From Gammaproteobacteria bacterium (lineage in GTDB: Bacteria > Pseudomonadota > Gammaproteobacteria > CAJXQU01), in the NCBI GenBank assembly GCA_965238175.1, contig CBDEGZ010000003.1:1184001-1248000 (forward strand): a stretch of DNA of 64,000 bases. The letters run 5' to 3'. Shown piece after piece: positions 9,408 to 42,225 of this stretch. The notes under the pieces were generated by a model. The model did not search any database. It was not told the DNA's origin and was given only the letters and a program-made list of their open reading frames with translations. Position numbers and translations under genes: made by a program. Position 1 is the stretch's first letter, and each line of letters starts with the position of its first letter.

Positions 9408-10016
9408 ATGGGTTTTACAATCAAAAAGGCAGGGGTTATAGCAAGCATACTTACAAGTATTACTATTTACTCGTCTGCAGCGTCAGCGATTGTGGTTGAT
9501 TTTACTGGCAGTGGTGGCAATTTAGGCACAACAGCAATGTTTAATACAGGCTTTGTTGATGTTGCATCAACTGGGTCAGGTGGAGGAGCGCTTTATCAAG
9601 ATTCTGATGGTTTGGGTGTTATTGGTGCAGGTGACTCAGACGAAATCAATGGTAGAGTCGAAGTCGTTACCGTCACATTCGATCAAGCTGTAAGTATAAA
9701 TTCTATTACGGTAGATGATTTATGGTTGGATACGGGTGATGTAGGTGCGGGTTATCAGATTAATGGAACGGGAACAATATTTAATATTGCAGCAGTAAAC
9801 AATCGTTCAAGTAATCTACCAACAGTTTCTACATTTGGGACACCATTTTCTAGTGTTACCTCACTTACTTTCTTTGCAGGGGTATTAGATGATACAGCAA
9901 GGGGCTATGCGCTAAGAGCAATTGACTACGATGTTGCCGCAGTTCCAGTGCCTGCAGCGTTCTGGTTGTTAGGCTCGGCGATGGTGTTCCTTTTCAGGAA
10001 ACGTAAAGTCGGTTAA
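9408..10016 (+). CDS. PEP-CTERM (VPLPA-like, VPVPA) exosortase-substrate surface protein
   Basis: Signal peptide ending ASA; low-complexity Gly/Thr/Asp body; C-terminal VPVPAAFWLLGSAMVFLFRKRK; AGGAG RBS. Confidence 0.9.
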   Translation: MGFTIKKAGVIASILTSITIYSSAASAIVVDFTGSGGNLGTTAMFNTGFVDVASTGSGGGALYQDSDGLGVIGAGDSDEINGRVEVVTVTFDQAVSINSITVDDLWLDTGDVGAGYQINGTGTIFNIAAVNNRSSNLPTVSTFGTPFSSVTSLTFFAGVLDDTARGYALRAIDYDVAAVPVPAAFWLLGSAMVFLFRKRKVG

Positions 10017-10058
10017 AGCGAGAAAGTTGTTCTAAATACATATAGTTCTGATGTTCGG

Positions 10059-10087
10059 AAAGCCCTGTTTTTGACAGGGCTTTTTTA
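10059..10087 (+). terminator. Rho-independent terminator
   Basis: AAAGCCCTGT...ACAGGGCTTTTTT. Confidence 0.85.
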
Positions 10088-10230
10088 TTTTCCAGTTATT
10101 GCTGCTGCAAATGGACTTGGTGGGAAGAGGAGAACCTTAGAAACCTGATGTGATGGTCTCCTCCCCCTAACGGCATCTAGGTGCCATGATTGAACTGACA
10201 TACACACAATCAAAAGAGGAGAAGACCAAA

Positions 10231-11244
10231 ATGAAGACTACAACAATCGGGTTAGACATAGCAAAAAACGTATTTCATGCTGTCTGCTGTAATCAACAAG
10301 GGCGTATAATCAAAAAGAAAATGTTAAAGCGAGCGCAGGTACTCTCCTTTTTTCAATCTCAACCTCCTTGTTTAGTCGCAATAGAATCTTGTGCAACGTC
10401 ACAGTATTGGGCCCGAGCGATACAACAACAGGGACATCAGGTGAAATTACTACCACCTCAGCATGTTAACGCATTTCTAATCGGCAATAAGAATGATTAT
10501 AACGATGCCTTGGCCATCGCCGTTGCTGCGAAACAACCTCATTTAAAAAGTGTGGGCATTAAATCAGTTGAGCAACAAGACAACCAGGCACAACATAAAG
10601 CAAGAGACTTAGCGGTCAGACAAAGAACCGCATTATGTAACCAAATGAGAGCGCTTGTTGCAGAATATGGCATTAGCCTTCGTCCCGGCCTAAATACCCT
10701 ACGTCAATCTATCCCGTTGCTATTAAGTGATGAGAACGAACGGTTGTCCGTTACTTTCAAAAGGATACTGCGCCAGCTAAAGGAACAATGGCAATCACTT
10801 GATGCCTGTATTGCGACATTTGACCAATTGATCATTCAATCGGCAAAAAACAATGCGATTTGCCAACGCTTACAAACTATTCCAGGGTTTGGGCCGATGG
10901 TCTCGAGCGCGTATTTTAATGAAGTGGGAAACGGCGCTCATTATCACAAAGGGCGCGATGTGTCCGCCTCATTAGGACTTGTTCCACGACAGTACAGTAG
11001 TGGTGGTAAAGAGGTGCTACTGGGGATCAGTAAACGCGGCAATAAATACCTTCGTTGTTTGTTAATTCTAGGCGCGAAGGCCGTGGTATCAAGAGCCAAA
11101 ACGAAAGGCGATAAACTGAGTCAATGGATTAATCGTTTAGTTGAGACGCGGGGGCATAATCGAGCGTGTGTGGCGTATGCCAACAAAATGGCAAGAATGG
11201 CCTGGGCTATAACGGTTTCTGGTGATGACTACTCACCGGCCTAA
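10231..11244 (+). CDS. IS110-family DEDD recombinase/transposase
   Basis: IGLDIAK, IES, KNDYNDA (DEDD); C-terminal GLVPRQYSSGGK, ISKRGNKYLR, ANKMAR; ATG 10231 after GAGGAG. Confidence 0.95.
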   Translation: MKTTTIGLDIAKNVFHAVCCNQQGRIIKKKMLKRAQVLSFFQSQPPCLVAIESCATSQYWARAIQQQGHQVKLLPPQHVNAFLIGNKNDYNDALAIAVAAKQPHLKSVGIKSVEQQDNQAQHKARDLAVRQRTALCNQMRALVAEYGISLRPGLNTLRQSIPLLLSDENERLSVTFKRILRQLKEQWQSLDACIATFDQLIIQSAKNNAICQRLQTIPGFGPMVSSAYFNEVGNGAHYHKGRDVSASLGLVPRQYSSGGKEVLLGISKRGNKYLRCLLILGAKAVVSRAKTKGDKLSQWINRLVETRGHNRACVAYANKMARMAWAITVSGDDYSPA

Positions 11245-11460
11245 ATAGAGAGAACAAATCATTTCAACGAATTGCGAAGGTAAAACTAAAGATGGCATAA
11301 CAGGTCAAACCAGCCTATTGAAAACCTGTCGAGCTCAGGGGTAACTAATACCGATAACCTGATAAGGAAAATAGGCGCGTAATACATCCAGGTCAGAAGT
11401 TGAAAACTTCATTGAAGGCCGTATATATGACAGCAATCCTGTCCCTGTTATCTGAATGTT
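11245..11460 (+). ncRNA. Putative bridge/seek RNA of the IS1111-group element (boundaries approximate)
   Basis: Two stem-loop modules whose internal segments match the insertion target (CGAGCTCA, ATAACCTGA) and the circle junction (ACATC, ATATATGA). Confidence 0.7.
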
Positions 11461-11679
11461 TTATCTTGCAATACGGGAGGAGACCATATATGAACTCGGG
11501 ATAAGAAATACTGCGTAGGTTATGCAAAGCCTAGCGTATCAACGTTTCTGAGAGCCCAGTTCTCTGCTAGTTTTGTCTTAGTTTATCAATCTAAATCTAT
11601 TAACACTATGATTTAGTAGGTTTTTAACCTACTTAGTCAGCCCTAAAAAACAAACTCATTGAATATATTAACTAAAGAT

Positions 11680-12364
11680 TCAGTAACAAGATGACCGAAT
11701 CGACCAGCGATAATAAAATGAAAGCTCCTTCTCTAGTCGAAATGCTGAATAAATGCTGACCAAAAGCCATACGGGTGGTTTTCAACCGAATTTGATTGGG
11801 AATGAGACTTACTTCAACTACTAACTCCCTCTACCCCTTTACTAGTGCTATCCGCCCGCAATTCCCTGGCATGACTTTGAGCAAGCCCTTGCCAAGCACT
11901 ACACTCAGGGATTTAGCTATATGGCAGCAAAATCTCCATTGCCAGCACAGCGAAGGGCAATATCATCGTTGGTACAATGAGTCACTTACAGAGCCTGCAT
12001 GACAGCCATACTTTACTGTCGTAGTGATGCATATCGAAACGTTACGGGGCAAAGTCGTTCACACAGCTGTTTGTGTTCGAGACTATCGAAGCCATCATTG
12101 GCTATCTGAAATCAGATTTTCGGATATCAAGAAACTTCCTCAAAGGTATATCAGGCAATGAAATTAATCTGCTAATGGCACTGTCTGGAACTTGAAGAAA
12201 TGGCTAGTCGCCATTTATCTGGCCTTATTTTTGTGGCTTAAAAGGAATGCTATACAGAATCAAAATCAACCCAGCATCAATGCAACGTTAAATCGAGGTT
12301 GCTCAGAGCCAAAGGCTTCTCTGGCAAATATCCATATCGTAAGTTGAAACTTTTTCAGGGGCGA
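11680..12364 (+). mobile_element. Internally deleted IS5-family remnant, copy 1
   Basis: Broken frames encode IPWHDFEQALAKHY, GNIIVG...LHDSHT and EAIIGYLKSDFRISRNFLKG...INLLMA; right end TTTTTCAGGGGCGA; near-identical to 41532-42218. Confidence 0.75.
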
Positions 12365-12438
12365 TTACTTAGCTAAAAAATTAGTTAAAAATCACAGTCA
12401 ATAAATCAAAAGCGGGTAATGCGCTTTTTTAGTTTGAT

Positions 12439-13383
12439 TTAAACGCAAATTTCAACCATTTCTTCAGTAATTGTTGAGATGATCTCTTCTAGTTTTTCAT
12501 CAGCCAAATTATTTTTGACTTGACATGTGCCCGCATTTAGATGGCCACCACCGCCGTAGTTCAGACAAAGTTCGCCAATATTAATATCAGACGATCGATC
12601 GAGAATTGACTTACCAATTGCAAATACGGTGTTTTGTTGTTTCAACCCCCACATAACATGGATAGAAATATTGGTTTCAGGGAATAATGCATAGATCAGA
12701 AAGCGATTGGCTGTATAGATAGTTTTTTCCTCTCGCAGATCAAGCACAACCAAGTCGTTATGGACCGTAGAGCAACGTTGGATCTGTTGTTTCGCTTTTT
12801 CTTCATGATGTTTAAAAAGTGTGATGCGCTCCTGAACGTCAGGTAAATTCATGATTTCATCAATAGAGAGTGCCTTACACTTGTCGATCAGATCCATCAT
12901 TAATTGATAATTTGAAATCCTAAAATCATGGAAACGGCCAAGGCCTGTACGTGCATCCATCAGAAAGTTAAGTAATGGCCATCCTTCTGGGTTTAAAATT
13001 TCGTTTTTACTAAATTGTGCAGCATCACCCTTATCTACCGCTGCCATCATTTCTTGCCAGTCTGTAGGAAAACGAGCATCGCCACCGTAATAGTCGTATA
13101 CAACACGGGCTGCGGATGGTGCATCCGGATCAATAACGTGATTTTTTTTCTTATCGTTTCGAATGGTTTCACTTAGATGATGATCAAAAGCGATGTGTAC
13201 GCCTTCAACATAAGGAAGGTTTGTTGTAATGTCGTTATCGGTGATATTAATCTTGCCATCTTGCATATCTTTAGGGTGAACAAATTTTATTTCATTAACA
13301 ATATCTAATTCTTTTAGAAGCACGGCGCAGACGAGTCCGTCAAAGTCGCTTCTTGTTACTAGTCTGAAATTTAAATTGGTCAT
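12439..13383 (-). CDS. DHH/DHHA1-family phosphoesterase (exopolyphosphatase-like / nanoRNase-like)
   Basis: RLVTRSDFDGLVC, FDHH, GGGGH motifs. Confidence 0.85.
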   Translation of the reverse strand: MTNLNFRLVTRSDFDGLVCAVLLKELDIVNEIKFVHPKDMQDGKINITDNDITTNLPYVEGVHIAFDHHLSETIRNDKKKNHVIDPDAPSAARVVYDYYGGDARFPTDWQEMMAAVDKGDAAQFSKNEILNPEGWPLLNFLMDARTGLGRFHDFRISNYQLMMDLIDKCKALSIDEIMNLPDVQERITLFKHHEEKAKQQIQRCSTVHNDLVVLDLREEKTIYTANRFLIYALFPETNISIHVMWGLKQQNTVFAIGKSILDRSSDINIGELCLNYGGGGHLNAGTCQVKNNLADEKLEEIISTITEEMVEICV

Positions 13384-36633: not shown

Positions 36634-36777
36634 ATTTCGGGTTAAATAACGCTACCTACCTTTACTTGTTAGTTTTGTATATTAGTATGTTATCAAGGCA
36701 TCAGGGTCATGGACAGGATGTTCAGCCAAAATGCCACTGATAAAGGATTATCAATATTCATTACATGGAGATACAAC

Positions 36778-37389
36778 ATGAAGTTCACAGCCAAAGGATT
36801 GATATTAATCGTCTCATCGATGGTTACATTTTCTGCACAAGCAACGGTCTACAGTTTTTCCTCGGAGTTTAAAAATCGCGCAATGGAAACTTATTCCACA
36901 TCTTGGAATACGGATAGTGATGTCCTTAGTCTGACTTCCAAATTTAATAATAGTCGCGGAAAAGTAGATAATATTCGATTTACGTTGACCGATGGTGCTG
37001 TGCCAAATAGAGCTAAGCAATACTTCACATACAACTTGGATTTAGTAAACAACAAAGTAAGTGTTAGAGATTATTGGAATGGCGGAAAAGAAATCGCTGC
37101 CTTTGAGAATATTATTGATATTAAACAAGGTGAATTTTCCTTGAACCTTGACCATACTGGCTTTGACAAAAAGTATAACGTCGGTTTCGGAGATAAACTT
37201 GGTATTTGGCATTTTGTTCATAGTAAGGGTAAAAAGATAGACCAAGTAGATCAAAGTAATGTGAGAACCACTAAAGTAGATCTTCCACCGGTATCTCCGA
37301 CTAGTGTATCAGAGCCCAGTACGATGGCATTAATGGGTTTAGGATTGTTAGGATTGATAGCTAGCCGTAGAAAGTTCGCTAAGAAATAA
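36778..37389 (+). CDS. PEP-CTERM-type (VSEP variant) surface protein, paralog A
   Basis: Start re-assigned to MKFTAK (GGAGA RBS); signal peptide ending AQA; C-terminal VSEPSTMALMGLGLLGLIASRRK. Confidence 0.88.
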   Translation: MKFTAKGLILIVSSMVTFSAQATVYSFSSEFKNRAMETYSTSWNTDSDVLSLTSKFNNSRGKVDNIRFTLTDGAVPNRAKQYFTYNLDLVNNKVSVRDYWNGGKEIAAFENIIDIKQGEFSLNLDHTGFDKKYNVGFGDKLGIWHFVHSKGKKIDQVDQSNVRTTKVDLPPVSPTSVSEPSTMALMGLGLLGLIASRRKFAKK

Positions 37390-37445
37390 GCTAAACAAAC
37401 CTAATGCGAAGGCTATAATCAGCAGAAGCTTTCATTTAAATTTAC

Positions 37446-37476
37446 AAAAAAGCCGAAGTTTATCTTCGGCTTTTTT
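37446..37476 (+). terminator. Rho-independent terminator
   Basis: AAAAAAGCCGAAG-tttat-CTTCGGCTTTTTT. Confidence 0.88.
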
Positions 37477-37579
37477 GATTAAGAAATAGAGACTTTAACT
37501 ACCCCCAACTCATGACAAGAAACTGAACTAAAAGCCCGCTCTTTGTTCAGATCAATTGAGACCTAAACAACAGACGAAC

Positions 37580-38102
37580 TGTTTGTATGGTTTCAACTAC
37601 ACCTCACCAACCATCAAGGGAATATTTTAGCCACCAAAATCGCAACTGGTAATGTCGAGGATTGTCAGCCTGATCCTGAACTCTGCGAGAGGACGACCGG
37701 CAAACTTTACAGGGATAAAAGCTACACCAGTAACGCTTTATCCAACAATTTATTTGATGAAGACGTTGAACTGGTCATCCATGTTTGGAAAAACAGGAAA
37801 GCAAAAGTCACTTCACTCTGGGTCGGTAATTGCTCCTGCATTACCAAAACTCCCCCTTCCATGGTAGTCAGACAGAGCTATGCTGAATCGGTGTTTTGTT
37901 ATTGAAAGATCAATGGCCAATTGAAAAAGATGACTCAGACAGAACACTCAAAACACCACTCTGCGCATGGTTTATATTGTTGAATCTTGTCGGTTGATTG
38001 CTTACTGTCTTAAAAATGAAGCCTTTTTTGGAAATTATCGAGTGATGATTTTGAGTGTTTGAAACAGGCGTTAGTGACTGTGGCTTAAAACGCTCTCGAG
38101 TT
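37580..38102 (+). pseudogene. Degenerate IS982-family transposase remnant
   Basis: Broken frames give YGF..LHL..NHQGNILATKIATGNVED, GKLYRDKSY (compare GKLYGDKGY), INGQLK..TEHSKHHS, LIAYCLK. Confidence 0.75.
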
Positions 38103-38332
38103 AACTAAAATGGACTGAGTATTTTAACCTGAACTTGGGATGAAAACGACAATAAAAACCCTAAAATACAATGAGTTATATGAAAACGCGGTGACTGTTT
38201 TGTCCAGCAGGCTTCTTTTCGTGGCTATTTTAAGGCGGAGTTGCGTAGTAATAGTGGGCTATTGGAAACAACTCCAACGTATAGAGGCGCTAAAAGAAGT
38301 CTGCTGGATGGGTGTTTATTATCCCGAGTTCA

Positions 38333-39677
38333 TATATGGTCTCCTCCCGTATTGCAAGATAAAACATTCAGATAACAGGGACAGGATTGCTGTCATATAT
38401 ACGGCCTTCAATGAAGTTTTCAACTTCTGACCTGGATGTATTACGCGCCTATTTTCCTTATCAGGTTATCGGTATTAGTTACCCCTGAGCTCGACAGGTT
38501 TTCAATAGGCTGGTTTGACCTGTTATGCCATCTTTAGTTTTACCTTCGCAATTCGTTGAAATGATTTGTTCTCTCTATTTAGGCCGGTGAGTAGTCATCA
38601 CCAGAAACCGTTATAGCCCAGGCCATTCTTGCCATTTTGTTGGCATACGCCACACACGCTCGATTATGCCCCCGCGTCTCAACTAAACGATTAATCCATT
38701 GACTCAGTTTATCGCCTTTCGTTTTGGCTCTTGATACCACGGCCTTCGCGCCTAGAATTAACAAACAACGAAGGTATTTATTGCCGCGTTTACTGATCCC
38801 CAGTAGCACCTCTTTACCACCACTACTGTACTGTCGTGGAACAAGTCCTAATGAGGCGGACACATCGCGCCCTTTGTGATAATGAGCGCCGTTTCCCACT
38901 TCATTAAAATACGCGCTCGAGACCATCGGCCCAAACCCTGGAATAGTTTGTAAGCGTTGGCAAATCGCATTGTTTTTTGCCGATTGAATGATCAATTGGT
39001 CAAATGTCGCAATACAGGCATCAAGTGATTGCCATTGTTCCTTTAGCTGGCGCAGTATCCTTTTGAAAGTAACGGACAACCGTTCGTTCTCATCACTTAA
39101 TAGCAACGGGATAGATTGACGTAGGGTATTTAGGCCGGGACGAAGGCTAATGCCATATTCTGCAACAAGCGCTCTCATTTGGTTACATAATGCGGTTCTT
39201 TGTCTGACCGCTAAGTCTCTTGCTTTATGTTGTGCCTGGTTGTCTTGTTGCTCAACTGATTTAATGCCCACACTTTTTAAATGAGGTTGTTTCGCAGCAA
39301 CGGCGATGGCCAAGGCATCGTTATAATCATTCTTATTGCCGATTAGAAATGCGTTAACATGCTGAGGTGGTAGTAATTTCACCTGATGTCCCTGTTGTTG
39401 TATCGCTCGGGCCCAATACTGTGACGTTGCACAAGATTCTATTGCGACTAAACAAGGAGGTTGAGATTGAAAAAAGGAGAGTACCTGCGCTCGCTTTAAC
39501 ATTTTCTTTTTGATTATACGCCCTTGTTGATTACAGCAGACAGCATGAAATACGTTTTTTGCTATGTCTAACCCGATTGTTGTAGTCTTCATTTTGGTCT
39601 TCTCCTCTTTTGATTGTGTGTATGTCAGTTCAATCATGGCACCTAGATGCCGTTAGGGGGAGGAGACCATCACATCA
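38333..39677 (-). mobile_element. IS110-family, IS1111-group element, copy 2
   Basis: Reverse complement of 10146-11490 with identical translated transposase; same sub-terminal IRs and same target AACC|TG|AACTCGGGATAA. Confidence 0.92.
38579..39592 (-). CDS. IS110-family DEDD recombinase/transposase
   Basis: Protein identical to 10231-11244. Confidence 0.95.
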   Translation of the reverse strand: MKTTTIGLDIAKNVFHAVCCNQQGRIIKKKMLKRAQVLSFFQSQPPCLVAIESCATSQYWARAIQQQGHQVKLLPPQHVNAFLIGNKNDYNDALAIAVAAKQPHLKSVGIKSVEQQDNQAQHKARDLAVRQRTALCNQMRALVAEYGISLRPGLNTLRQSIPLLLSDENERLSVTFKRILRQLKEQWQSLDACIATFDQLIIQSAKNNAICQRLQTIPGFGPMVSSAYFNEVGNGAHYHKGRDVSASLGLVPRQYSSGGKEVLLGISKRGNKYLRCLLILGAKAVVSRAKTKGDKLSQWINRLVETRGHNRACVAYANKMARMAWAITVSGDDYSPA

Positions 39678-39885
39678 GGTTATTGTTAGATACATTGTGC
39701 ATAAAACTGTGTCAAAGTGACAGAACAATGTCACAAATTATAAACTAAGAGGTCTTGCTATTTACTTACGTCAATTATTCATTAACTATGGGCACGTATA
39801 TTGGGTTCCTGAACTGGACGTTTGATAAAGAACCACAGATAAAGGATTATCAATTTTTACTATAACAATTATAAGGAGATACAAC

Positions 39886-40509
39886 ATGAAATTCACAGCC
39901 AAAAAATTAGTTCCCGCTATTGTTTTAACCGTAGCATCAACCATCACATTTTCAGCACAAGCGACTATTTATAGTTTCTCAAAAACAGTTACTGGCAAGG
40001 CGATAGAAACTTTTTCGACTTCCTGGAATACTCAAAATAATGTTCTCAAACTATCATCAAGCTTCAATAGTAATAAAGGATATATTGACAGGTACTCCTT
40101 TGTTTTGACAGGTGGTGGTGGCCCTCGCGGAGCAGAGGAATATTTCAACTATAATTTAGATTTGGTGAGCAACCGTGTAACTGTCACTGACTATCGTGAC
40201 CAGACTAACATATTAGCGACATTTGATAATATTATCGATATTAAACAAGGTAGCTTTTCAGTGAGTCTTGATCATACGGGTGCTGGTAACAATTACAATA
40301 TTGGATATGGAGAAGACATTGGTATTTGGAACTTTTTGCATAGTGGTGGTAGGTTGGTAGATCAGCTTGATGTCCATAGTGCAAAAACTACTGCGACACA
40401 ATCACCTACTCCTGGTACTGGCGTATCTGTATCAGAGCCGGGCACATTAGCATTAATGGGCTTAGGATTGTTAGGGATGGTTAGCCGTAGGAAGTTGGCT
40501 AAGAAATAA
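39886..40509 (+). CDS. PEP-CTERM-type (VSEP variant) surface protein, paralog B
   Basis: MKFTAKKL signal peptide; VSEPGTLALMGLGLLGMVSRRK tail; homologous to A and C. Confidence 0.9.
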   Translation: MKFTAKKLVPAIVLTVASTITFSAQATIYSFSKTVTGKAIETFSTSWNTQNNVLKLSSSFNSNKGYIDRYSFVLTGGGGPRGAEEYFNYNLDLVSNRVTVTDYRDQTNILATFDNIIDIKQGSFSVSLDHTGAGNNYNIGYGEDIGIWNFLHSGGRLVDQLDVHSAKTTATQSPTPGTGVSVSEPGTLALMGLGLLGMVSRRKLAKK

Positions 40510-40535
40510 GAATAAGTCATTTTAATTTGACACTC

Positions 40536-40565
40536 AAAGCCGAAGTTAATCTTCGGCTTTTTTTT
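40536..40565 (+). terminator. Rho-independent terminator
   Basis: AAAGCCGAAG-ttaat-CTTCGGCTTTTTTTT. Confidence 0.88.
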
Positions 40566-40793
40566 GTTCAAGGGATAGAGTTTCAGACTTTACTTAAAAC
40601 GAACTGAGTATTTTAGATACACTGCGCATAGAATTGTGTCAAAGTGACAGAAGAATGTCACAAATTATAAATTAAAAGGCCTTGCTATTTACTTACGTCA
40701 ATTATTCATTATTATAGACACATACATCGGGTTCCTGAACCGGACGTTCAGTTGATAAAGGATTATCAATTTTTACTTATAAGGAGATACAGT

Positions 40794-41459
40794 ATGAAAT
40801 TCACAGCTAAAAAGTTAGTTCCTGCCATTATTTTAACCGTAGCATCGACCATCGCATTTTCAGCACAAGCGGCATTACTTCCTGATCATGATGTTTATAG
40901 TTACTCAACTTCCTTTAACAATCGCGCAACAGAAAGCTTTTCCACGTCTTGGAATACAGCCACTAATGTACTTAGTCTTTCTTCCATGTTTAATAATGAT
41001 TATGGCAAAGTGGATAATATCCGATTTACGTTGACTGATGGCGCCGCGCCAGATCGCGCCAGGCAATACTTCTCATACAATCTGGATTTAGTAAACAACA
41101 AAGTTACTGTTGGAGATCTTTGGAATGGCGGAAAAGAAATTGCGTCTTTTGATAATATTATCGATATTAAAGACGGTAAACTGTCATTAAAACTTGATCA
41201 TTCTAGTTTTGACAAAAAGTATAATGTTGGTTTTGGAAACAATCTTGGTGTCTGGCATTATGTGTACAGTAAAGGTAAACAAATAGATCAATTGGATCTG
41301 AATAATGTTGGAACCAGGGTAGACCGCGTAATAGTAGATCCGCCAGCGGTGATAGAACCACCTGTTACCGGCGTATCTGTATCAGAGCCGGGCACATTAG
41401 CATTAATGGGCTTAGGATTGTTAGGGATGGTTGGCCGTAGGAAGTTAACTAAGAAATAA
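40794..41459 (+). CDS. PEP-CTERM-type (VSEP variant) surface protein, paralog C
   Basis: Start re-assigned to ATG 40794 (AAGGAGA RBS); VSEPGTLALMGLGLLGMVGRRK tail. Confidence 0.9.
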   Translation: MKFTAKKLVPAIILTVASTIAFSAQAALLPDHDVYSYSTSFNNRATESFSTSWNTATNVLSLSSMFNNDYGKVDNIRFTLTDGAAPDRARQYFSYNLDLVNNKVTVGDLWNGGKEIASFDNIIDIKDGKLSLKLDHSSFDKKYNVGFGNNLGVWHYVYSKGKQIDQLDLNNVGTRVDRVIVDPPAVIEPPVTGVSVSEPGTLALMGLGLLGMVGRRKLTKK

Positions 41460-41485
41460 CAATAAGTCATTTTAATTTGACACTC

Positions 41486-41514
41486 AAAGCCGAAGTTAAT
41501 CTTCGGCTTTTTTT
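41486..41514 (+). terminator. Rho-independent terminator (same as after paralog B)
   Basis: AAAGCCGAAG-ttaat-CTTCGGCTTTTTTT. Confidence 0.88.
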
Positions 41515-41531
41515 GTTTAAGGGATAAAGGC

Positions 41532-42218
41532 TCAGTAACAAGATGACCGAATCGACCAGCGATAATAAAATGAAAGCTCCTTCTCTAGTCGAAATGCTGA
41601 ATAAATGCTGACTAAAAGCCATACGGGTGGTTTTCAACCGAATTTGATTGGGAATGAGACTTACTTCAACTACTAACTCCCTCTACCCCTTTACTAGTGC
41701 TATCCGCTCGCAATTCCCTGGCATGACTTTGAGCAAGCCCTTGCCAAGCACTACACTCAGGGATTTAGCTATATGGCAGCAAAATCTCCATTGCCAGCAC
41801 AGCGAAGGGTAATATCATCGTTGGTACAATGAGTCACTTACAGAGCCTGCATGACAGCCATACTTTTTACTGCCGTATTGATGCATATCGAAACGTTACG
41901 GGGTAAAGTCGTTCACACAGCTGTTTGTGTTCGAGACTATCGAAGCCATCATTGGCTATCTGAAATCAGATTTTCGGTTATCAAGAAACTTCCTCAAAGG
42001 TATATCAGGCAATGAAATTAATCTGCTAATGGCACTGTCTGGAACTTGAAGAAATGGCTAGTCGCCATTTATCTGGCCTTATTTTTGTGGCTTAAAAGGA
42101 ATGCTATACAGAATCAAAATCAACCCAGCATCAATGCAACGTTAAATCGAGGTTGCTCAGAGCCAAAGGCTTCTCTGGCAAATATCCATATCGTAAGTTG
42201 AAACTTTTTCAGGGGCGA
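41532..42218 (+). mobile_element. Internally deleted IS5-family remnant, copy 2
   Basis: Near-identical direct copy of 11680-12364 with a few substitutions and a 2-bp indel. Confidence 0.75.
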
Positions 42219-42225
42219 CTATGTC

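Follow-up and report, generated by a model that had tools for sequence, protein, structure and literature searches.

According to the parts of two papers on which our comparisons draw (Siddiquee et al. 2024, PMC11187229; Durrant et al. 2024, PMC11208160), features of the ends and of the non-coding regions part the IS1111 group from the IS110 group of insertion sequences. SeekRNAs were shown experimentally for four IS1111 elements, ISEc11, ISPa11, ISKpn4, and ISPst6; in the IS1111 type, the match to the top strand comes first, 5′ of that to the bottom strand, and the two overlap at the insertion point, while the order is reversed in the IS110 type (PMC11187229). The same study proposed a junction promoter for these families and reported that a short seekRNA of 82 nt alone supported the movement of ISEc11, with the role of the long form left unsettled. 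Bridge RNAs were predicted in 93% of the IS1111 elements of ISfinder, and donor-binding nucleotides were also predicted in the IS1111 bridge RNAs (PMC11208160). Here we describe an IS1111-type element in a window of 64,000 nt, the whole stretch analyzed, from a Gammaproteobacteria bacterium (assembly GCA_965238175.1, contig CBDEGZ010000003.1, positions 1,184,001 to 1,248,000). Positions 11245–11494 of this window very probably make up the non-coding right end of an active element of the IS1111 group, which would encode a bridge/seek RNA of ca. 200 nt and use it by the mechanism proposed below.

Anatomy and family assignment of the element

The element (1345 bp) was found twice in the window, at 10146–11492 on the plus strand (copy 1) and at 38331–39677 on the minus strand (copy 2; predicted bridge RNA at 38352–38551, minus strand). 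Both copies were bounded by AACC TG ... TG AACTCGGGATAA and lay in a longer identical stretch (10142–11504 of the plus strand equals 38319–39681 of the minus strand). As the copies share 100% identity in opposite orientations and are separated by 26.8 kb, homologous recombination between them could invert the intervening segment. The transposase/recombinase gene (10231–11244, plus strand) encodes 337 aa from the ATG at 10231; its open frame reaches back to 10186, and the alignments with homologues begin at the first residue encoded from 10231. The product contains DEDD_Tnp_IS110 and Transposase_20 domains (Pfam PF01548, E = 3.6e-16, and PF02371, E = 6.4e-20, respectively) and scored 302.9 bits against the NCBIfam model NF033542 (IS110 family RNA-guided transposase; cutoff, 140). 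Its length is within the 330–350 aa of the IS1111 group, and it carries the GL-P----S(t)G motif of this group as GLVPRQYSSGG (LGLVPRQYSSGG). Among 18 homologues, D9, E52, D89, D92, G249, V251, P252, G258, and G259 were invariant, and S256/S257 were retained in at least 90%.

The left end (10148–10165) consists of the extension ATGTG (10148–52) and a 13-bp subterminal inverted repeat (sTIR), ATGGTCTCCTCCC (10153–65), and is preceded by the TG core (10146–10147) and the left target half (10141–10145), which reads AAACC in copy 1. The right end (11475–11492) is composed of the sTIR GGGAGGAGACCAT (11475–87), the extension ATA (11488–90), and the TG core (11491–92), and is followed by the right target half (11493–11512, AACTCGGGATAAGAAATACT), the inner part of a terminal repeat common to miniature inverted-repeat transposable elements (MITEs) and IS982-type elements. 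The left non-coding region from the left end to the ATG is 83 nt (10148–10230), compared with 230 nt from the stop codon to the right sTIR (11245–11474). An sTIR of 13 bp (range in the IS1111 group, 7–17 bp), short terminal extensions, a longer non-coding region downstream of tnp, and site- and orientation-specific insertion with only a short core flanking the element, with all 24 genomic copies at (T/A)AACC^TG...TG^A (carets mark junctions) and empty sites present, are features of the IS1111 group. These features and the domains support the assignment of the sequence to the IS1111 group of the IS110 family, in agreement with a preliminary description that had placed a guide RNA downstream of tnp in such an element. 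A search of the PDB with the transposase sequence returned only IS621 and ISCro4, each at E of about 2e-4.

In a plasmid collection, the best relatives of the transposase, from enterobacterial plasmids, were only about 45–46% identical. One of them, an IS110-family element (45% protein identity) at NZ_CP058173.1 46993–49394 (L086), has a similar subterminal repeat, ATGGTCGCCTCCC, and a left junction within a repeat reading GGCTTTGTT..., presumably an IS903-type end. An IS5-like element cuts into the right end of this locus, which was therefore left out of the comparison.

Predicted RNA, target guides, and probable donor module

A scan of one genome per species gave 80 relatives with transposases 49–78% identical to that of the element, the closest of which were in metagenome-assembled genomes and isolates labelled Halioglobus, Colwellia, Shewanella frigidimarina, Paraglaciecola, and Pseudoalteromonas. 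Including the window, both ends were found by motif in 65 of 81 sources, and 49 non-coding regions were aligned; the results on relatives below refer to these 49 rows unless noted. Copies from the same genome or contig (L031, L032, L034, L036, L038, L039, and L060), loci with cut flanks (L024, L044, L051, L059, L068, and L072), and loci of odd length or with ambiguous ends (L016, L035, and L075) were dropped from the alignment.

The predicted target-binding module occupies 11313–11376 on the plus strand. All strings from which the preliminary description had read it are present: the stem GCCTATT (11313–19) with AATAGGC (11370–76), the apical hairpin GGTA (11340–43) with TACC (11349–52), and two guide segments, CGAGCTCA (11330–37) and ATAACCTGA (11354–62). 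The alignment confirmed the placement of the guides and shifted their boundaries. The right-target guide (RTG in the terms of Durrant et al.; the 'T' match of Siddiquee et al.) is one base longer at its 5′ side, at 11329–11337 (TCGAGCUCA, i.e., TCGAGCTCA), and its sequence complements the top strand across TG and the right target. The left-target guide (LTG; the 'B' match) comprises 11355–11361; the last A of ATAACCTGA is preserved as a loop base in almost every row and is not a guide position. The LTG, UAACCUG, has the top-strand sequence of the left target plus the core, matching 23 of the 24 copies exactly, and would therefore pair with the bottom strand.

The loop segments covaried with the flanks across the homologous elements. 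In the non-core guide columns (7 + 6 nt), 503 matches of the guides to their own flanks were counted, compared with 224 ± 13 (maximum, 284) when the flanks were permuted, and none of 20000 permutations attained the observed value. The aligned rows span 44 flank classes and 47 distinct guide pairs. We also examined, independently of the alignment, the 59 loci for which each side offered 12 nt of flanking sequence. The best match (at least 7/9) to the reverse complement of the core plus seven right-target bases was at the homologous offset in 49 of the 59 elements. For the left-flank 9-mer, the best match was at the expected offset in 33 elements, and 25 satisfied both; the lower score of the left flank is due in part to the outer two bases of the 9-mer, which lie outside the guide. 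RTG and LTG thus overlap at TG and covary with the flanks in the manner of an IS1111-type seekRNA, and their order in the window also agrees with this type. Together these data support the identification of the first module as the target-binding loop. Within the window itself, ATAACCTGA occurred three times against 0.51 expected, two of the three being the guide itself, CGAGYTCA occurred five times against 3.72 expected, and ACATC alone was uninformative. Since such matches go only weakly beyond chance, the case was made from the other copies and the relatives.

The predicted RNA body of ca. 200 nt (11272–11471, plus strand) is closed by two helices, P0 (11272–86 with 11458–71) and P1 (11291–304 with 11438–52). 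Inside them lie the target module, which contains an inner clamp CCU/AGG (11325–27 with 11365–67) in addition to the stem and the apical hairpin above, a GC clamp of two pairs (11377–78 with 11433–34), and the donor module (11391–11420), formed by the stem GGTC/GGCC (11391–94 with 11417–20) and the apical hairpin GAAGTT/AACTTC (11396–401 with 11405–10). The stems named in the preliminary description all belong to this conserved fold, which includes the unlisted helices P0, P1, and the inner clamp as well. The RNAalifold consensus showed compensatory changes in 22 of 40 pairs. After the addition of P0, the structure comprised 50 pairs in nine helices, of which 89.3% were paired, compared with 34–41% when the 3′ partners were slid by 1–3 columns, and the covariation score was 0.322, compared with 0.08–0.13 for the slid versions. 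Both sides had changed in 31 of the 50 pairs, and none of 500 shuffles attained any of the observed measures. The target module stem was 99% paired with 7/8 pairs compensatory, and helices 8 and 9 of the donor module had 7/9 compensatory pairs. P0 was the weakest helix, with 69% pairing; it was counted in the un-bulged register, while the bulged register suits the window sequence better. An Rfam scan of 9500–12500 at E ≤ 10 gave only three chance-level matches to unrelated families.

In the second module, the segment UACAUC (11383–11388), a right-donor guide (RDG)-like sequence, can pair with the core G and ATGTG of the left end through five Watson-Crick pairs and one U·G wobble. AUAUAUG (11423–11429), a left-donor guide (LDG)-like sequence, reproduces the final bases of the right end followed by the core. 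The strings named earlier, ACATC (11384–88), ATATATGA (11423–30), and GAAGTT/AACTTC, are all in place; the first is longer by one base, TACATC (11383–88), and includes the wobble, and the final A of the second falls in a varying column and is not a guide position. When the loops are compared with those of bridge RNAs, the target loop has left and right guides that include the core and the LDG also includes it, whereas the RDG would pair with only the core G and five nucleotides of the left end, and its base opposite the first core nucleotide is a mismatch in this element. Position 4 of the left end (ATGNN) formed a Watson-Crick pair with the RDG column in 48 of the 49 rows (A-U, 36; T-A, 11; and G-C, 1). 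The LDG has the family form AUAUAYG, and its Y tracks the right-junction core in most rows; the core bases of the LDG, RTG, and LTG likewise agree with that core in most rows. We read the second module as a probable donor-binding loop, less confidently than we read the first as the target loop. The ends of the element vary little, which makes the donor-guide test thinner than the target-guide test.

It is also conceivable, though unlikely, that only the first module guides and that 11377–11434 is a structural or processing element of the long precursor RNA whose resemblance to the ends stems from shared ancestry or from promoter/end sequence. Such a role would fit the sufficiency of the 82-nt seekRNA for ISEc11 (PMC11187229). 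It would also accommodate the shortness of the RDG (6 nt, one pair being a wobble), the lack of conservation opposite the first core nucleotide, where the window has C11389 as a mismatch to the core T, and a covariation that comes from one informative column, in which the A-U/T-A split follows few clades. In contrast, the one left-end position that varies is Watson-Crick paired in 48 of 49 rows through three pair types, including a lone case of ATGGA with UCCAUC, and the core base of the LDG alternates between U and C in step with the right-junction core. In addition, the topology of the second module is that of the target module, with a segment complementary to the top strand 5′ and a segment identical to it 3′ of the stem, and donor-binding nucleotides have been predicted in IS1111 bridge RNAs (PMC11208160). 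These points favor a donor-binding loop.

In the loci with both ends found, the boundaries were YG^ATGNN-sTIR ... sTIR-ATA^YG, and YG thus precedes ATGNN across the family. Read from these family-wide boundaries, the core is the dinucleotide TG, as had been proposed; the A after the left TG belongs to the element, and that after the right TG to the target. Eleven of the 49 relatives (L026, L028, L029, L047, L053, L056, L058, L063, L064, L070, and L078) had TG at the left junction and CG at the right junction, and the reverse was never seen. In these relatives, the LTG, RTG, and LDG specify CG, and the RDG base facing that position varies. T as the first core base gives a better −10 hexamer in the circle junction. 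We tentatively raise, as a doubtful possibility, that the family handles the first core base asymmetrically, unlike the description of IS621. If so, the first core base beside the left end could travel with the element in IS1111-type elements, strand exchange could be offset by one base or a heteroduplex resolved one way, and the donor and target cores need not match.

Target sites and probable activity of the element

BLAST of the genome detected 24 full copies of the element, one more cut by a contig start, and a few fragments; a solo right-end copy was not found by the same search. Copies at unrelated sites were not among the 24: the left junction was TAACC^TG in 23 copies and AAACC^TG in one (copy 1 of the window), and the right junction was TG^A in all. 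The statement that both window copies sit in the same site thus holds for AACC^TG and is inexact for the preceding base of copy 1. The right flank was of the AAYTYRGG type in 13 of 24 copies, AACCCAGG in one, and AGATCGGT in two, and was less alike in the other eight.

The target site, TAACC^TG^AACTCGGGATAAG (also written TAACC^TG^AACTCGGG), lies within a terminal repeat. The uninterrupted sequence TAACCTGAACTCGGGATAAG was present in the genome at empty MITE ends, including both ends of a MITE of ca. 210 bp (L083). In six insertions, copy 2 of the window among them, an inverted partner repeat was located 206–208 bp beyond the element. The MITE hit by copy 2 (38125–38330, ca. 210 bp) has its partner repeat 208 bp from the insertion, and this other end (38125–38144, TAACCTGAACTTGGGATGAA) is empty. 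In two insertions, the partner repeat was 1004 bp away and the DNA between encodes an IS982-family transposase (NF033520, 279 bits). Each of these two IS982-like copies, which are identical, thus carries an insertion, a third such copy carries one at its opposite end, and more diverged copies with TC or CC in place of the TG core are empty. Three further insertions have another repeated right flank in common. The RNA-coding end of the element always points toward the interior of the victim. Most insertion sites are terminal inverted repeats of ca. 210-bp MITEs or of IS982-family elements, which bears out the MITE terminal repeat proposed as the target and widens it to the IS982 family.

The occupancy of TAACCTG sites in the genome increased with the match of the right flank to the RTG. 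At least 5/8 positions matched in 11 occupied and 12 empty sites, 4/8 in eight occupied and 25 empty sites, 3/8 in three occupied and 103 empty sites, and 2/8 or fewer in one occupied and 352 empty sites. At G000:C3:393937–395311, a short hairpin-like element has two inverted target-like sites; the site with a perfect RTG match (TAACCTGAGCTCGGGG) is empty, and the element occupies the less well matched one, 9 nt away in the other strand.

These sites bear on a further explanation, in which there is no guide RNA: the 3′ region would work as DNA, through transposase binding or as the junction promoter, and TAACCTG would belong to the element, whose boundaries would then be misplaced. The presence of TAACC^TG at 23 of the 24 left junctions, next to unrelated sequence farther left, is how an element-borne end would look, and TTGCAA within P0 is explicable by promoter function alone. 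However, uninterrupted TAACCTGAACTCGGGATAAG exists at empty MITE ends, on one MITE at both, and relatives with the same ends occupy very different left flanks while the loop segment changes to match. A function at the DNA level also does not predict that 31 of 50 pairs are compensatory. We consider this explanation very improbable and retain the guide RNA.

The 24 copies differ by two single-nucleotide polymorphisms in total over 1343 bp (window equivalents 10869 and 11416), neither of which is in a guide, and all keep the open reading frame. Because of these near-identical copies with open reading frames and the conserved catalytic-type residues, the element is evidently active. When contigs of three DNA runs (one sample) were compared with 9900–11800, the element appeared as a collapsed contig of 1352–1353 nt (10142–11493) at ca. 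19–26 times the flank depth, with loose ends running into various right flanks. A circle junction or an empty-site joint was not seen in these contigs, which cannot reveal rare forms and therefore say nothing on excision. That the element is an inactive relic with a non-functional RNA gene is the least probable alternative, despite the mismatch of the RTG to the commonest target and the lack of a circle junction in those contigs, given the near-identity, open reading frames, and catalytic-type residues of the 24 copies and the occupation of both identical IS982-like copies.

Several observations weigh against the reading of 11245–11494 as the guide RNA gene of an active element. The RTG has one C·A mismatch to the commonest target, TGAACTCGG, at the second right-target base (AACTCGG); one relative (L003) carries the matching U at this position. 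Four of the 24 insertions match the ideal right target at 3/8 positions or fewer, one of them at 1/8, implying that right-side recognition is loose or that later rearrangement altered some of the flanks. Nor do the occupancy counts represent independent events, since many of the occupied sites lie in repeat families with sequence in common by descent. In single-sequence folding, the 250-nt stretch gave z scores of −3.06 on the plus strand and −0.93 on the minus strand, while the 151-nt core (z = −0.83) was no better than shuffles, and part of the RTG region was paired (CCUG...CAGG); the single-sequence energy was set aside and covariation was preferred. A search of sequencing runs for the element matched the three DNA runs of one sample and no RNA run. 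To these are added the thin donor covariation, with nearly invariant ends, and the unmatched core-facing base of the RDG.

Other repeats and element-like sequences were also observed. A degenerate relative of the element lies at G000:C3:2357907–2358383, with 79% identity over the first 394 nt and 72% over positions 750–832. At G000:C3:1393150–1393450 (L084), positions ca. 118–196 form a palindrome of ca. 75 bp from two inverted left ends of the element, with 44 nt in each half, an overlap at the natural GGCA...TGCC hairpin, and TAACCTG on both sides; it resembles a foldback of two left ends or a very small derivative element. In the window, a direct repeat of ca. 700 bp (11673–12367 and 41525–42221, 98% identical) begins ca. 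180 nt to the right of copy 1, and 3–4 more partial copies lie elsewhere in the genome. Small paralogous genes in tandem (repeat families D1, D4, and D6–D9) occupy 36760–41523 and 9408–10016, with copy 2 among the paralogues. The open reading frame at 9408–10016 ends in VPVPAAFWLLGSAMVFLFRKRKVG, which resembles a PEP-CTERM-type sorting signal.

Proposed mechanism and comparison with known systems

A candidate −35 sequence, TTGCAA (11466–11471, plus strand), lies 17 nt before a −10 sequence (TA+TG+AT) that is present only when the ends are joined in a circle. This putative circle-junction promoter matches the consensus at 9/12 positions, in keeping with the promoter suggested for the joined ends of these families (PMC11187229), and the geometry of TTGCAA, 17 nt, and TA^YG^AT was found in 51 of the 65 loci with both ends. 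A sigma-70-like site was not found on the plus strand within the integrated copy. By homology to tested relatives, the element may excise as a circle in which the right and left ends join to create TTGCAA, 17 nt, and TA^TG^AT, and we infer that this junction promoter would drive transcription of the transposase gene and the downstream RNA. The RNA would fold into a long basal stem with two modules. In the donor module, UACAUC would pair with the left end and AUAUAUG with the right end plus TG. The DEDD/serine recombinase, presumably bound to the RNA, would then exchange strands at the TG core. Insertion would take place 7 bp inside the terminal inverted repeat of MITEs of ca. 210 bp or IS982-family elements, with the RNA-coding end directed inward.

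Read in this way, the locus would offer an annotated, evidently active RNA-guided recombinase of the IS1111 type with a TG core and every guide segment mapped, and an example of a mobile element homing by an RNA guide on the end repeats of another mobile-element family and of MITEs. Its 24 near-identical copies and ca. 500 unoccupied TAACCTG sites in one genome constitute a natural data set on specificity, in which the left half and the core look strict and a mismatch is permitted at the second base of the right half. The 49-member alignment, with its 44 target classes, is a possible seed for a covariance model of the clade and provides natural examples of retargeting.

A literature search, whose scope excluded the supplementary tables of the 2024 papers and ISfinder, returned three general papers, none of which by title or abstract dealt with IS1111-type insertion into IS982 ends, and a full-text literature search for the subterminal-repeat string together with IS1111 gave no match. 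Given this silence on IS982-end targeting, RNA-guided insertion into IS982-type/MITE terminal repeats may be an undescribed target class. A known IS1111-type element similarly uses a Tn21/Tn3-type terminal inverted repeat as a target in one orientation; judged by its description, it is set apart from ours by other victims, which here are IS982-type insertion sequences and MITEs, and by another target sequence. In Pseudomonas putida, ISPpu9, an IS110-family element inserted in repeated extragenic sequences, also has a small RNA gene (Ssr9) downstream of its transposase, according to the part of PMC12288879 consulted. Unlike ISPpu9, for which extra stand-alone copies of the RNA gene are described there, the element showed no solo right-end copy in the BLAST of this genome.

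As far as the portion of PMC11208160 used here (and PDB 8wt6) describes IS621, the element resembles it in having two modules with predicted left and right guides and a putative circle-junction promoter, with one guide directed to the bottom strand on the left side of the core and the second to the top strand on its right side. It differs from IS621 in that the RNA gene is in the right end instead of the left, the guides within each loop come in the opposite order, the core has the sequence TG and not CT, and the subterminal repeat is long; the transposase matches the IS621 protein only in the C-terminal domain (E = 2e-4). The location in the right end and the reversed guide order suggest a bridge-RNA-like way of working in an IS1111 layout.

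The closest likeness is to ISEc11, ISPa11, ISKpn4, and ISPst6. As these four are presented in the corresponding part of PMC11187229, they share with the element a DEDD transposase of 330–350 aa with GL-P----S(t)G, subterminal repeats, a long region downstream of tnp, and site- and orientation-specific insertion; their RNAs have a long form of 145–170 nt and a short form of 70–100 nt. The element described here, known from sequence alone, differs from them in its target, the terminal repeat of IS982-type elements and MITEs. Since guide RNAs of this class had already been predicted or shown for IS1111 elements, it adds a member and not a new class: the element is new, but it belongs to the class described in 2024 and leaves the picture of that year unchanged.

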